Assembly (NCBI GenBank): GCA_014763885.1
Contig: JACXUO010000001.1
Span: forward strand, 62 to 64,061
Length of the DNA stretch: 64,000 bases
Source of the DNA: Campylobacterales bacterium
GTDB taxonomy: Bacteria > Campylobacterota > Campylobacteria > Campylobacterales > Sulfurovaceae
Reading direction: 5' to 3'
Shown: positions 24,743-63,585 of the stretch, one piece after another
Layout: each line of letters begins with the position of its first letter
How positions within the stretch are numbered: the first letter of the stretch is position 1
The notes under the pieces: generated by a model
What the model saw: only the letters and a program-made list of their open reading frames with translations
Told to the model about the DNA's origin: nothing
The model's database searches: none
Translations under genes and position numbers: made by a program

Positions 24743-24763
24743 GTAGGTTTGGCACTGCCAAAC
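24743..24763 (+). repeat. GTAG-family REP element, copy 1
   Basis: GTAG-GTTTGGCA-C-TGCCAAAC: tetranucleotide foot plus perfect 8-bp palindrome. Confidence 0.9.
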
Positions 24764-24789: not shown

Positions 24790-24810
24790 GTTTATCCGTG
24801 CCATACCTAC
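24790..24810 (-). repeat. Degenerate REP copy 2, inverted relative to copy 1
   Basis: GTAGGTATGGCACGGATAAAC, 17/21 identical to the REP; contains the RAYT stop TAG and the ATG at 24804. Confidence 0.75.
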
Positions 24811-25328
24811 TCAAAATCAATACTCTCATCAAACACACCCCAATCATCATCATGATATCCGGCATCCATAAATTTGCCAAACGATGAATACTCCCACGCA
24901 GCAGCGCTAGGCGCAAACTTATGTTTTACGGGATTATAATGAATATAATTCAACCTTAGCTTATAATCTCTCTCATCCCGTATGGTATGCTCATAAAAAC
25001 GTTTTTGCCAGACAGGTTTATAGTGCTGCCCTTCTCTACTGTGGGATTGCATTAAATGCCGGTAATATTTCGGATCACAATGGGACGAGAAGTACCTTTT
25101 GATAGATCCAATGATTTTAGGATACTCCTTGACATCTTCAAACATCACTATCATATGGATATGATCAGGCAGTATAACGATGGCATCGATAGTGAATGAA
25201 AACTGACGTTTGACATGCGTGAAGCTTTCTCTTAAAAGCCCAATATTTTCGATCAATATCAGATTACGTTCATAGGTTACAAGGGTAAAAAAGTAGCTAT
25301 GTCCTTCTAAAAAAACTCTTCTATAATT
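24807..25328 (-). mobile_element. REP-associated tyrosine transposase (RAYT, HUH/Y1), probably start-disrupted
   Basis: NYRRVFLEGHSYFFTLVT...PDHIHMI (HUH)...WQKRFYEH.IRDERD...YIHYNPVKH...WEYSS; an in-frame TGA at 25331-25329 precedes the conserved N-terminus. Confidence 0.92.
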
Positions 25329-25348: not shown

Positions 25349-25369
25349 GTAGGTTTGGCACTGCCAAAC
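25349..25369 (+). repeat. GTAG-family REP copy 3
   Basis: Identical to copy 1. Confidence 0.9.
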
Positions 25370-58839: not shown

Positions 58840-58962
58840 TTATTTTCCTAGTTTCTTCTTATAATATGCTACGATACCTAAACCTACAGCTACCAATCCG
58901 AAAATGATTACGATCGATCCGATGATCACCTCATTTGGTACAGGACGGCTTAGATCAAACAT
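58840..58962 (-). CDS. Small single-TM protein (40 aa) between ileS and gatA
   Basis: [40 protein letters not shown]; TAATG overlap with the ileS stop. Confidence 0.75.
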
Positions 58963-61709
58963 TAGCTTACCACCTCGGCACATCTGGCACATACTTTTTC
59001 TTCGCTTGCGGATACGAACTTCCAACATCGAGGACATTTACAAGCAGTTGCTTTATGAATCGCGTATGTTTTGCCTTCTACTTCAAAACTAGCCAGCTTC
59101 TCACCTTCGCTATCAGGTTTCACCGCTGATACGACAAACCAGTCTTCCATATCCTTATTGCTGCTAAAGCCTTCGATCTCTCCGACCAGCTCAAGTTCCA
59201 ATGTTGCTTTGATCAGTTTCTCTTTTCTGAGTTTGTCAACCTCTTCATAGAAACCTTCTCTGATCTCCATCAGCGCTGAAACGTCAAACGGTGCCTCCAT
59301 AGCCGGCAGCGGCTCATAGAGAAGATCGAAGATATTTTCCATCTCTCCCTTGAATATCTTCGGCGCATACTCCAGGATCTCATCCGTCGTATAGGTCAAT
59401 ACAGGCGCTACAAGACCCAGCATTGACTTGGCGATCAGTGCCATTGCTGACTGCGCTGCTCTTCTGGTTGTACTCTCTTTTGCATCACAGTAGAGTCTGT
59501 CCTTACAGATATCCATATAGATACCTGAGAGTTCGTTTGTCAGGAAGTGGTTCAGTGTTGCAAACCCTTTGAGGAAATCATTTGCCTCAAATGAAGCTTT
59601 GATCGAAGCAAAGACCTCACCTGCTTTTGCAATAATCCATCGATCCAATTCACCATACGATTCAACCGGTACGATCGCATCCAGATCATCCACGTTTGCA
59701 AGCAGGAATCTGAATGTGTTACGGATCTTTCTATACTGTTCCGCTGTCTGCTTCAGAATGTTGTCTGAGATCTTGAGGTCTGACTGGTAGTCGGAAAGTG
59801 CTACCCACAGTCTGAGGATCTCCGAACCGTACTCCTTGACCACCTTGTCAGGGGCAACAACGTTCCCCTTGGACTTTGACATCTTCTCACCCTTCTCATC
59901 CACGGTAAATCCGTGAGTGATCAGTCTCTTATAGGGTGATTGTCCTGTGATCGCAGCAGAAAGAAGCAGTGAACTTTGGAACCAACCTCTATGCTGGTCA
60001 CTTCCTTCTATATATAGTGATGCCGGGTATTCTCCCGCATCATAGTTGCCGCTCTTGATCACCGAGTTCCATGTCGAACCGCTGTCAAACCACACATCAA
60101 GGATATCATTGATCTTCTCAAGGTCATCCGGGTTGTACTGACTTCCTGCAGGCAACAGCTCAGCGATACTCATCTCATACCATGCATCTGCACCCTTCTC
60201 ATCGAAGAGTGATGCGACATGCTCTAGTACCTCTTCATCCAGGATCACCTCTTTGGTACTCTTGCTTCTAAAGAATGCGATAGGAACACCCCAGCTTCTT
60301 TGACGGGAGATACACCAGTCAGGACGGCCTTCGATCATCGGCTTGAGTCTGTTCTTTGCCGAAGCCGGGAAGAATGCTACCTCTTCGATCGCATCAAGTG
60401 CTGTTTGTCTAAGCGATTTATCCTCACCTTTTGCCGTATCGTCTACCGAGATGAACCATTGGTTTGTTGCTCTGTAGATCAAAGGCTTTTTCGTTCTCCA
60501 ACAGTGTGGATAGGAGTGCACGAACTTGCTTTGTTTTAACAGGTTCTCTCCAAGCAGTTCCAGGATCGGCTCGTTTGCTTTGAAGATATGCATCCCTACA
60601 AACTCTTGTGCATTTGGAAGAAGGTTGAGACCTACTACTGACTCATCATAGCAGCCTCTCTCATCCACAGGCATCACGACATCAAGACCATACTTAAGCC
60701 CTACTCTGTAGTCATCCTCACCGTGTCCAGGTGCGGTATGTACACATCCGGTACCGCCATCCATTGTTACGTGTTCACCAAGTACAATTTTTGAACTTCT
60801 TCCGTTGAGTGGGTTGATCGCCAAAAGGCCTTCCATCTCTTTGGCCGTAAGCTTTCTGCTTGCATGGCCGCTTACGACTCCCTCTTCGATCATCGCATCA
60901 TATCTGGCATCCGCTACGATGTGTCCATCATCTGTAAGTACATACATCTCTTCAGGATTGATCGCGATACCTGTGTTTGACGGAAGTGTCCAAGGTGTCG
61001 TCGTCCAGATCACCAGTCCGGCTTTACCCTCGACTCCGATCTTCTCTTTCGCTGCATCACTGAGTTCAAAATGCACATAGATGGAGTAGTCCTCTTTATC
61101 CTCATACTCCACCTCTGCATCCGCAAGTGCTGTCTGCGCAGCCCATGACCAGAAGATCGGTTTATGACGTTCAACCAACAGCCCTCTCTTTGCTACTTCA
61201 CAAAGCGTTCTGTAGATGTTGGCTTCAAATTTGAAGTCCATCGTTACATAAGGGTTATCCCAGTCAGCGATACATCCCAGAGATTTAAATCCCTCTCTCT
61301 GGATATCGACAAACTTCGCGGCATGGTCACGGCAGAGTTCTCTGAACTTCTCTGTCGGCATCGCCTCTTTTTTCTCCTTGCCGAGCTTCTCTTCGACTTT
61401 CTGCTCGATCGGCAATCCATGACAGTCCCAGCCCGGAGTCATACGTACGGCTTTACCCTGAAAGTAGTTGTATTTAAGAATGATATCTTTGAGTATCTTG
61501 TTGAGTGCATGTCCGATATGGATATCCCCGTTTGCATACGGAGGTCCATCATGCAGTGTGAACATCTCAGCACCGGCACGTTTTGCTTTCATCTGCTCAT
61601 AGATATCTGCATCAAACCAGGCACTGTATTTCTTTGGTTCATTAGTGGGGAGGTTTCCGCGCATCGGGAAGTCTGTTTTGGGAAGGAGTAACGTCTCTTT
61701 AAAATCCAT
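58962..61709 (-). CDS. ileS: Isoleucine--tRNA ligase (type 1)
   Basis: [26 protein letters not shown]-terminal CPRC..CARC; start at ATG 61709. Confidence 0.98.
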
Positions 61710-61736
61710 CTGTGATAACACCTTGAAATGAGGCTT

Positions 61737-62005
61737 ATCACCGTACTAGATACCTACCCCGAATTTAATGCAGTGATTTCGTTCAGAATCAAGGCAGATT
61801 TTTGAAGGACTAGCCGTAGCTAATTTGAAAAAATCTAACGCAGGTTATGGGCGAAAGCACTGCACCCTTTGGGAAGAATGAAAAAGGACAATCTTCAAGC
61901 AAAAAAATCTTCGAATTACCTACAGGTAGTCCTTCAGATTTTTTCACTCACATCTCACCCTTCTTCAATCTTTTAAATGCTCGGGTAGGTATCTAGTACG
62001 GTGAT
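61737..62005. mobile_element. 269-bp non-coding element with perfect 23-bp terminal inverted repeats (MITE/ERIC-like)
   Basis: ATCACCGTACTAGATACCTACCC at 61737-61759 with exact reverse complement at 61983-62005; nested internal hairpins; no ORF. Confidence 0.7.
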
Positions 62006-62045
62006 TTACCTCGTGATAATTATCTCGTGATTGTACCCAAAAGAG

Positions 62046-62068
62046 TATTATAAAACGCTTTTATAATA
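62046..62068. promoter_or_regulatory. Palindrome carrying back-to-back TATAAT -10 boxes (divergent promoters)
   Basis: TATTATAAAA-cgc-TTTTATAATA. Confidence 0.55.
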
Positions 62069-62073
62069 AGTCC

Positions 62074-62209
62074 CAAAATCTACGCTGCCGCTAAAGCATC
62101 TTACGACTCAGCATTTCGTGCTTCGCTTACACTGTGTTTTAGTCACTTGTCAGCAGCAGGTGCCCGAAGGAAGTGCCCTTGGGGTGCTCATGTGACTAGT
62201 CACATTTTA
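62074..62209 (+). ncRNA. Candidate structured sRNA or dispersed REP-like element
   Basis: Follows TATAAT 62062-62067; GC-rich stems; ends in the 16-bp palindrome ATGTGACTAGTCACAT plus TTT. Confidence 0.35.
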
Positions 62210-62251: not shown

Positions 62252-62737
62252 ATGAAAAATTTAGAAAAAACCGTTAAAAAACTTATAGAAATACTAAGCA
62301 AGAGAGACCAGACTGTCAGTTTTGCTGAAAGCTGTACCGGAGGCCGTATCGCAGCAGCATTCACAGCAGTCTCAGGTTCTTCAACTATCCTGCACGGCTC
62401 ATGTGTCACTTATGCCAATGAGATCAAAGAGCAGTGGCTTGGAGTCCCAAAAGTGATATTGGAAACCAAAGGTGCCGTCAGTAAAGAGTGTGTAGAGTAT
62501 ATGCTTGCAGGGATGGAAAGGATGGCATCTTCTGATTATACACTCGCGGTATCAGGGATAGCAGGTCCGACCGGGGGCACAGAGTTCAAGCCTGTGGGCA
62601 CCGTCTATGTAGGGTTGCGTACACCTGATGGAAAGAATGAAGTCCATCACTGCCTCTTTAAAGGAGAGAGGCATCAGGTACAGGAGCAGGCAACCGCTTT
62701 TGCCATTGAACTTTTAGAAAAAAATGTAAATTCTTAA
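62252..62737 (+). CDS. pncC: CinA C-terminal domain / NMN deamidase
   Basis: AESCTGG, TYANEIK, GAVS, SGIAGPTGG...KPVGTV; start moved to ATG 62252. Confidence 0.88.
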   Translation: MKNLEKTVKKLIEILSKRDQTVSFAESCTGGRIAAAFTAVSGSSTILHGSCVTYANEIKEQWLGVPKVILETKGAVSKECVEYMLAGMERMASSDYTLAVSGIAGPTGGTEFKPVGTVYVGLRTPDGKNEVHHCLFKGERHQVQEQATAFAIELLEKNVNS

Positions 62738-62819: not shown

Positions 62820-62895
62820 GACCTATTAGCTCAGCTGGTAGAGCAACTCCCTTTTAAGGAGTGGGCCCATGGTTCGAATCCATGATGGGTCACCA
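62820..62895 (+). tRNA. tRNA-Lys(UUU)
   Basis: Cloverleaf; anticodon loop CTTTTAA; TTCGAAT; CCA. Confidence 0.97.
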
Positions 62896-62970
62896 TTTAA
62901 TTTTGTAGTTTTCCTCAGCGGAAGGCTCATGCAACGTTGTTGCTTTATTTATGACTGTTTGGATCTAGAT

Positions 62971-63046
62971 GACCCTTTCATCTAGTGGCCAAGGATGCTG
63001 CGTTTTCATCGCAGACACAGAGGTTCAAATCCTCTAGGGGTCGCCA
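62971..63046 (+). tRNA. tRNA-Glu(UUC)
   Basis: Anticodon loop TTTTCAT; TTCAAAT; CCA. Confidence 0.96.
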
Positions 63047-63059
63047 AATTGACAGTTAT

Positions 63060-63135
63060 GGTCGCTTAGCTCAGTTGGTAGAGCGCTACCCTTACAAGGT
63101 AGATGTCACAAGTTCGAGTCTTGTAGCGACCACCA
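63060..63135 (+). tRNA. tRNA-Val(UAC)
   Basis: Anticodon loop CTTACAA; CCA. Confidence 0.97.
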
Positions 63136-63206
63136 TTTAAATCTTGTCTTAATTTAAGGTTAAGGTGAGTATAATTTAAGCTCAAATTAAAATTTGAGAT
63201 TACGGT

Positions 63207-63283
63207 GCGGCGGTAGTTCAGTTGGTTAGAATACCTGCCTGTCACGCAGGGGGTCGCGAGTTCGAGTCTCGTCCGCCGCGCCA
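63207..63283 (+). tRNA. tRNA-Asp(GUC)
   Basis: Anticodon loop CTGTCAC; CCA. Confidence 0.97.
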
Positions 63284-63294
63284 CTATTTTAGGT

Positions 63295-63370
63295 GACCTA
63301 TTAGCTCAGCTGGTAGAGCAACTCCCTTTTAAGGAGTGGGCCCATGGTTCGAATCCATGATGGGTCACCA
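63295..63370 (+). tRNA. tRNA-Lys(UUU), second identical copy
   Basis: Same sequence as 62820-62895. Confidence 0.97.
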
Positions 63371-63391
63371 TTTTTATACATATTTTCATTT

Positions 63392-63467
63392 GGTCGCTTA
63401 GCTCAGTTGGTAGAGCGCTACCCTTACAAGGTAGATGTCACAAGTTCGAGTCTTGTAGCGACCACCA
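63392..63467 (+). tRNA. tRNA-Val(UAC), second identical copy
   Basis: Same sequence as 63060-63135. Confidence 0.97.
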
Positions 63468-63508
63468 TGTTTTACATTAATTTTTTTAATGTCATTCTTT
63501 TTATTGGT

Positions 63509-63585
63509 GCGGCGGTAGTTCAGTTGGTTAGAATACCTGCCTGTCACGCAGGGGGTCGCGAGTTCGAGTCTCGTCCGCCGCGCCA
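63509..63585 (+). tRNA. tRNA-Asp(GUC), second identical copy
   Basis: Same sequence as 63207-63283. Confidence 0.97.

Follow-up and report, generated by a model that had tools for sequence, protein, structure and literature searches.

A MITE-like element with two strand-specific hairpin modules in the ileS spacer of a Campylobacterales bacterium

The stretch of Campylobacterales DNA analysed here (the window, 64,000 nt) carries a 269-bp element between a promoter-like site for ileS and the ileS start codon. We are highly confident that it is a structured, MITE-like and non-autonomous element with two hairpin modules under selection. It looks like a hitherto undescribed repeat of the MITE type, distinguished by a structured core that is strand-specific and unusually well conserved. 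The fuller statement, that this 269-bp MITE-like element at ileS is moved in trans and that its modules act as protein-bound folded strands, is one to which we would give an even chance. The element and its surroundings are laid out as follows.

61735..61736, no strand: TT, the left half of a candidate target-site duplication of 2 bp, directly abutting the perfect terminal repeat
61737..61759, no strand: left terminal inverted repeat ATCACCGTACTAGATACCTACCC, perfect over 23 bp, half of the closing stem P0
61767..61875, plus strand: hairpin unit B, matched over its full length by the A-type covariance model (60.7 bits, E 1e-12)
61804..61829, plus strand: apex motif of unit B, with a GGA/UUU stem, a C.A mismatch and a UAGC-CGUA-GCUA mini-hairpin
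61865..61873, no strand: central palindromic mini-hairpin CCCTTTGGG, common to the 3′ ends of both units
61863..61974, minus strand: hairpin unit A (covariance model 102.4 bits, E 6e-23)
61910..61935, minus strand: apex motif of unit A, with a GGA/UUC stem and a UACC-UGUA-GGUA mini-hairpin
61983..62005, no strand: right terminal inverted repeat, reverse complement of the left one, perfect over 23 bp
62006..62007, no strand: TT, right copy of the candidate 2-bp target-site duplication, abutting the right terminal repeat
62047..62076, minus strand: promoter-like TTGGGA-18-TATAAT outside the element, a consensus match only, pointing through the element to ileS
58962..61709, minus strand: ileS (Pfam tRNA-synt_1), with a probable ATG at 61709 and an ORF that extends to 61721
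ATG at 62252, plus strand: CinA-family gene on the other side of the divergent spacer

The divergent spacer between ileS and the CinA-family gene is 530 nt long and holds both copies of a 26-nt motif, GAAGGACTAGCCGTAGCTAATTTGAA at 61804-61829 (+) and GAAGGACTACCTGTAGGTAATTCGAA at 61935-61910 (−). A preliminary description had reported this inverted pair, and we reproduced both its coordinates and its 22/26 identity, with one copy on each strand. The copies are mismatched at motif positions 10, 12, 17 and 23. Positions 10 and 17 face each other as the third pair in a stem of 4 bp (TAGC/GCTA versus TACC/GGTA), which confirms the compensatory swap between G-C and C-G that had been claimed for this stem; as RNA, the mini-hairpins read UAGC-CGUA-GCUA in the plus copy and UACC-UGUA-GGUA in the minus copy. 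Position 12 is the first base of the loop (C versus T), and position 23 turns G-C into G.U in the flanking helix (GGA/UUC versus GGA/UUU). A degenerate pattern spanning both copies has 2 matches in 64 kb, where 0.01 are expected, and two or more matches arose in 0/100 shuffles. A single compensated pair between two copies is weak evidence when taken alone (p about 0.02-0.03, a rough estimate); it is now strong evidence because of the family data from 128 units presented below.

Each motif caps a long imperfect hairpin with a covarying stem, and the two hairpins make up homologous units of ~110 nt. The window was scanned with a covariance model trained only on “A-type” units of other genomes, and the model found two matches only, units A and B, both over its full length. 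Because both halves are matched full-length, we regard them as homologous units, one per strand. Unit A contains two tandem G.A internal loops, AGAU/AGAU and GAA/GA. The perfect 23-bp inverted repeat that encloses the units has 0 occurrences expected by chance, and imperfect pairing reaches 61730 and 62012, giving a 30-nt inverted repeat (61730-61759 / 61983-62012, 90%). As a whole, the 293-nt stretch folds on either strand with a z of about −10 into the closing stem, two long arms and the mini-hairpin. ORFs through the element are short and not conserved, and the stems covary as a non-coding structure. The promoter-like site, if used, would put the whole element in the 5′ leader of ileS, with unit A in sense.

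Two other features of the neighborhood deserve mention. At 62162-62186 (hairpin context 62140-62198), 150 nt away from the element, is a GC-rich hairpin of 25 nt, GCCCGAAGGAAGTGCCCTTGGGGTG, and nearly the same 25-mer is found inside two unit apices of another MAG (L026 275-299 and L071 237-261), at the exact position between TAATT and CGAA. About five contigs of run X8 stack on 62138-62206, and the GCCCGAAGGAAGTGCCCTTGGGGTG region therefore appears to be a small repeat itself; its only Rfam match is a weak one to ssNA-helicase (E 0.6). Farther out, a tRNA cluster at 62820-63585 comprises seven genes (Lys, Glu, Val, Asp, Lys, Val, Asp), in which Lys, Val and Asp occur twice each with identical Rfam scores, suggesting a recent duplication of a Lys/Val/Asp block.

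The element belongs to a family that is widespread in related genomes. We scanned genomes with a motif pattern that was unconstrained in the stem and at the first loop position and obtained 91 stretches, of which about 80 come from MAGs that bear a Campylobacterota label (Sulfurovum, Sulfurimonas, Arcobacteraceae, Sulfurospirillum and Nitratifractor). Matches are numerous in some MAGs, and many are located at contig ends. Complete genomes carry the family as well, one example being the Arcobacter sp. LRMN1-1 chromosome (NZ_CP182350.1, locus L037). The sequences flanking the motif are family-specific, yet always mutually complementary. The unit model identified 132 units at genome loci; another 96 came from 67 metagenome loci, and almost every unit belongs to a convergent pair whose members overlap by about 12 nt. 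The order within the family is fixed: a terminal repeat (closing stem), hairpin A, the CCCNNNGGG mini-hairpin, hairpin B on the other strand, and the second terminal repeat. Element length ranges over 268-275 nt at about 35 loci, with the motif beginning 66-71 nt inside one end; in genome tcs-49, at least 7 near-identical copies have an element length of 272 nt and terminal repeats of 22 bp. Terminal repeats in other copies measure 12-36 bp and fall into families that are unrelated in sequence (for example, TTATTACCGCACC..., TTAAGGGCACCTCTAAAAA..., TAGACTTCTTGC... and TTAAGTGCTTCTCC...).

The family also includes one-module versions of 165-190 nt with terminal repeats of their own, as well as half-elements, and many two-module elements have retained the canonical loop in a single apex. 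Given these one-module elements and degenerate partner apices, one module per element seems to be enough. The same apex, again with its own terminal repeats, is present in loci of 51%, 59%, 61% and 74% GC, carriers that are unlikely to be Campylobacterota, judging from their composition. Copies lie in divergent spacers more often than in convergent ones (15 versus 4), and in tandem contexts there is no orientation bias toward neighboring genes (8 versus 6), as the two-strand design predicts.

In seven or more copies the element breaks off 0-18 nt 3′ of the apex motif, and unrelated sequence follows at once (L010 ~6376, L011 ~1215, L038, L045, L063, L066, L089 and L095 2617-2657). The ORFs that adjoin these truncated copies are ordinary genes. 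A break or a deletion may have occurred at the hairpin tip, or the motif may have been cut. Separately, a 61%-GC metagenome contig (L145) has a one-module unit at 216-313 directly upstream of a large serine recombinase gene (346-2055) that lies beside a tRNA gene, and this unit is possibly within an integrative element. Three loci of Clostridia MAGs (L031 6857-6879, L078 2473-2495 and L082 303-325) have a common block, GTGCGGAGGCGCACTCCCAATA, followed by a look-alike of the motif, TGAAGGACTAACGGTAGTTAATT; they have neither flanking hairpin arms nor an Rfam match and are probably an unrelated conserved element matched by chance.

Across this family, every stem covaries and the 26-nt apex is almost invariant. 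In 32 diverse full elements, RNAalifold predicted 103 pairs, of which 98 show two-sided changes that keep the pair, and the pairs of the closing stem P0 covary between families. In a model-based alignment of 128 distinct units, 93.3% of stem cells are paired, in comparison to 58.9% after shuffling and 38-52% after sliding; since this alignment was fitted to the structure and the sequences are related, these pairing figures are generous, and an independent MAFFT alignment agrees. Two-sided changes were found in 44/44 pairs of the 128-unit alignment, and the observed values were reached by 0/500 shuffles. The central mini-hairpin helix is paired in 99% of cases in the 128 units. The preliminary description had taken the swapped pair as a sign of selection on the hairpin and had looked to further copies for pairing broken at random. 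The pair in fact stays paired throughout the 128 distinct units (G-C 82, C-G 36, A-U 6, U-A 1, G-U 1; unpaired in 0/128), and the 4-bp helix as a whole is 98.8% paired.

The apex has the consensus U-G-A-A-G-G-A-C-U-A-[S]-C-[Y-G-U-A]-G-[S]-U-A-A-U-U-C-R-A, in which most bases are 85-98% conserved, except for the two covarying stem positions, Y and R. It holds a conserved G.U pair (109/128), a conserved C.A mismatch and the GAA/GA loop, and it stays AT-rich even in the 74%-GC locus. A G.U pair occupies a second conserved position of the unit in 70/128 cases, and the second tandem G.A motif of hairpin A (AGAU opposite AGAU) is almost invariant. Selection on the hairpin structure is strongly supported by these sequence comparisons.

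To compare the strands, we replaced the counting of G.U versus A.C pairs on predicted structures, which favours the folded strand, with a comparison of folding energies on both strands of 32 elements. The closing stem has no preference (A strand −44.95, other strand −44.67 kcal/mol; 17 versus 15 elements). Hairpin A folds better on the A strand in 31/32 elements (−45.2 versus −31.8 kcal/mol), and hairpin B folds better on the other strand in 30/32 (A strand −32.5, other strand −38.6 kcal/mol). In these energy models, each module is shown to be favored on the strand that reads 5′ to 3′ inward from its own end, and the terminal repeats behave as ordinary duplex repeats. The presence of one copy per strand, noted earlier for the window alone, thus extends to the whole family as two convergent units, each better folded on its own strand. 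The strand energies make this arrangement a designed property of the family, and they argue against a purely DNA-level upkeep of palindromes.

Comparison of orthologous sites demonstrates that the element is an insertion/deletion polymorphism between close relatives. A contig of a hot-spring metagenome is identical to the window, and the element is also present in a 98%-identical relative. In run X8, from marine sediment, the flanks are near-identical and 61725-62008 (284 nt) is absent, with 12 other letters in its place. Run X12 contains both an occupied allele and an empty one, the latter with the gap seen in X8, and in a more distant relative (runs X5-7) 61726-62018 is absent. The empty alleles differ in loop sequence and are too diverged to fix the exact insertion junction. 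The site itself is a small hairpin in the empty alleles (GAGG-TCTGG-CCTC or GAGG-TTTGC-CCTC), and the element appears to sit in its loop.

The occupied allele of run X12 has 8 substitutions at stem positions. Five of the eight keep or improve pairing on the unit's own strand (for example, G.U to G-C or A-U), two (61914 and 61926) break apex pairs of unit A, and one breaks a pair of the minus-strand closing stem. These pair-breaking changes indicate that individual copies can decay. The window has one copy of the element only; there is no second close copy in the source sample, whose assembly passes straight through the element. Being the sole copy there, the window copy may be an inert relic.

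Flanking repeats are suggestive of a transpositional origin. In the TTAAGGGCACC family (family ii, three clusters), the 2 bases flanking the AGGGCACC...GGTGCCCT core match in 14/15 copies (AA, TA, AC or TT), and a 3-bp flanking repeat fits 3/4 copies in tcs-49. The candidate duplication of the window copy, TT/TT, is only 2 bp, and none is clear in most copies of the window's own terminal-repeat family. The family has the terminal inverted repeats of a MITE, its small size and lack of coding capacity, and its dispersed multiple copies and presence/absence polymorphism, though the window and the source sample have a single copy. Integration by a transposase acting in trans through short staggered cuts, leaving 2-3-bp duplications, is likely on the evidence of these flanks.

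Searches for the machinery of mobilization had the following outcomes. Beside the units and in the plasmid collections we found no autonomous IS with the same terminal repeats, and no transposase, reverse transcriptase or other gene, and hence no candidate for the binding protein, recurs beside about 230 units. Clustering of ORFs within 2.5-3 kb of the motifs at about 150 loci yielded housekeeping neighbors only. Plasmid and phage collections had no match to the whole element or to two terminal-repeat consensus sequences, and a single pattern match in a viral contig proved not to be a unit. Complementarity of the guide type between terminal repeats and interiors was not detected (longest matches 6.9 versus 6.4 nt in shuffled sequences). 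Ends bearing guide RNAs (IS110 bridge RNA, TnpB/IscB omega RNA) were rejected, as neither guide complementarity nor an associated recombinase or nuclease gene was found. Inspection of the terminal repeat by eye for an internal promoter found no conserved −10 element.

We propose that a transposase acting in trans would move the element by short staggered cuts and that the modules would act as folded single strands, with RNA somewhat favored over single-stranded DNA. Because each strand has its own module, transcripts that run in from either side would first encounter one in the correct orientation. The contact surface for a conserved trans-acting protein may be the invariant apex (UGAAGGAC-stem-YGUA-stem-AAUUCRA, with its G.U pair, C.A mismatch and tandem G.A), and the closing stem of ~31 bp is a predicted substrate of the RNase III type in the ileS leader. 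That a protein recognizes the apex is plausible, given how little the apex varies between families and between loci of different GC content. RNA is preferred because G.U pairs are fixed at specific positions, because tandem G.A motifs are conserved, because one module per element seems to suffice and because the mirror-image design gives read-through transcripts a sense module first. Against this preference, hairpins containing G.T could form in single-stranded DNA too. The runs labeled as “RNA” are doubtful, consisting of unstranded contigs at DNA-like depth, and are uninformative on transcription.

The main rival to the RNA reading, possible yet the less probable of the two, has each end of the element made up of a terminal repeat and a hairpin module; the mobilizing transposase or an accessory factor would bind the module as extruded or single-stranded DNA and recognize the apex as its subterminal site. 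It is essentially the idea of the preliminary description, in which the motif was a recognized site; selection on the hairpin has held up, and the motif as a stand-alone site has not, since it forms the tip of a much larger mobile element that is itself structured. The symmetry of the modules, which lie 66-71 nt from the termini and read inward on their strands, is that of transposon ends, and the terminal repeats and candidate 2-3-bp duplications indicate transposition. The apex is kept across families with differing terminal repeats, and seven copies end 0-18 nt 3′ of it. The termini of the largest repeat family, TTAAGGGCAC, weakly resemble the 5′ half of the apex, TGAAGGACTA (11 nt are common in L028), but the similarity is missing in the window's own family. 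Moreover, hairpins are dispensable for transposases of the kind that leaves terminal repeats and target duplications, which bind their ends as duplex, and extrusion from duplex DNA is unlikely for a hairpin of 110 nt that has internal loops and 3-4 G.T pairs. Two equivalent end sites are not required, given the one-module elements and the often degenerate partner apex, and no transposase was found near the about 230 units.

Far less probable is an explanation that grants the hairpins no function, with palindromes kept by template switching or gene conversion between arms and the motif conserved by recent ancestry. Palindromic repeats can indeed gain seemingly compensatory changes without selection, many of the sampled copies are related, and the closing stem has no strand preference. 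However, template switching gives perfect Watson-Crick arms and no strand asymmetry, whereas the hairpins are better by 6-13 kcal/mol on one strand in 30-31/32 diverse elements and their G.U positions are fixed. In addition, the non-palindromic apex bases and the tandem G.A loops are invariant from 30% to 74% GC, where the stems have been fully turned over.

Slightly weaker still, and already largely refuted, is the view that the motifs are a REP doublet (REPIN/BIME) mobilized by the RAYT encoded in the same window at 24807-25256 (−; Pfam Y1_Tnp, E 3e-7; HUH and YIHYNP motifs), a very improbable reading. The motif does contain GTAG, the tetranucleotide that RAYTs recognize in REPs (PMC6006769), and its copies are inverted like those of REPINs (PMC3116915). 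But the definition of a REP calls for a stem of 7-20 bp, paired throughout and closed by a loop of 2-5 nt, with GTAG or GTGG placed 0-2 nt 5′ of the stem (PMC6006769), and the GTAG of the motif spans the loop and the 3′ stem of a 4-bp hairpin and is lost in many partner units. The RAYT gene, to which the motif had been tentatively linked, is 37 kb off and is bracketed by different, canonical REPs, GTAGGTTTGGCACTGCCAAAC, at 24743 (+), 25349 (+) and 25481 (−), in which GTAG is directly followed by GTTTGGCAcTGCCAAAC with a 7-8-bp stem, in agreement with the published definition (PMC6006769). These window REPs are absent from the 93 loci examined for them, and no RAYT homologue was found in 160 loci. 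REPINs are also without such terminal repeats and target duplications. The REPs at 25349 and 25481 form a REPIN-like doublet of their own, with 27-nt arms 79 nt apart.

That the motifs are half-sites for a regulator of divergent ileS and cinA promoters, as their divergent intergenic position and the small dyad in each might suggest, is already refuted by the distribution data and has next to no probability: the 284-bp block is absent from the same spacer in close relatives, it adjoins unrelated genes in many genomes, and four pair types occur in the covarying dyad arms, a degree of variation that no fixed DNA-binding protein would tolerate.

The protein-bound, folded-strand element that we favor has no match among catalogued RNAs. 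In Rfam 15, only tRNAs of the window reach the gathering score and nothing at the locus falls below E = 0.6; at gathering and permissive E-values, there was likewise nothing in five GC-rich carrier loci or in the Clostridia look-alikes. Patterns of the hammerhead (CUGANGA), the hairpin ribozyme, attC (R boxes on both sides), the K-turn and CsrA sites were compared by eye and do not fit. Keyword and sequence-string searches of the literature found no description of the element.

Among known repeats, the Correia elements of Neisseria (CREE/NEMIS) are intergenic, non-coding sequences of 100-160 bp with terminal inverted repeats of ~26 bp and a 2-bp (TA) duplication. They occur in many copies, and when they lie in a 5′ leader, as they often do, transcription turns the inverted repeat into a long duplex that RNase III cuts. 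We know of no cognate transposase for them. The present element resembles them in its terminal repeats, candidate 2-bp duplication, orphan status and predicted leader insertion; it differs in being about twice as long, with two internal ~110-nt modules that have a deeply conserved apex. Its ends vary between families and its interior is conserved, the reverse of the Correia pattern. Unlike Correia elements, it spans several genera and apparently phyla. ERIC/IRU of enterobacteria, bcr1 of the Bacillus cereus group and RUP/BOX of pneumococci are, similarly, MITE-like with compensated long stem-loops (PMC3184786, a general review that also covers Correia elements), but they are without the two-module, one-per-strand design or the invariant 26-nt apex and have no sequence or Rfam similarity to the present element.

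With REP, BIME and REPIN sequences the element has in common two inverted structured units, of which one is functional per strand, the GTAG, and a RAYT in the window (PMC3116915, PMC3337134, PMC6006769). In those systems a protein recognizes the folded single strand, a likeness that holds for the present element by proposal. Its units of 110 nt contrast with the 20-40 nt of REPs, and it has terminal repeats and candidate short target duplications. Subterminal imperfect hairpins are also a feature of IS200/IS605 ends and of PATEs, the derivatives of that family that lack an ORF, where they are recognized on one strand as single-stranded DNA (PMC6006769, PMC2775950), and the IS200/IS605 family is common in Campylobacterota (IS605/IS608 of Helicobacter; PMC6006769, PMC2775950). 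Both end hairpins of IS200/IS605 are, however, on the same (top) strand, without terminal inverted repeats or target duplication. The present hairpins are on opposite strands inside terminal repeats of 23-36 bp with 2-3-bp flanking repeats, at variance with what defines a PATE.

We conjecture, as a doubtful extension, that the ~110-nt unit is a new class of protein-recruiting RNA or strand-specific single-stranded DNA module that has spread through Campylobacterota and into GC-rich phyla on MITEs with interchangeable terminal repeats. A bacterial MITE is usually recognized by its ends, with an interior that drifts; in the present family, the ends are interchangeable, and the fold of the interior is precisely conserved and duplicated, so that either DNA strand has a working copy. 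A practical consequence is that these elements break metagenome assemblies, with many copies at contig ends. The conserved, duplicated fold implies a specific molecular partner and a function that has outlasted transfer between genomes of very different kinds. Should the mobilizing enzyme prove to be the bound protein, the elements would form a transposon family whose conserved recognition information sits in a structured single strand and not in the terminal repeat. Copies in the 5′ leaders of housekeeping genes such as ileS may alter expression. The identity of the partner would either add a new structured RNA for Campylobacterota, in which, to our knowledge, few regulatory RNAs have been described, or explain how an orphan MITE family is moved.
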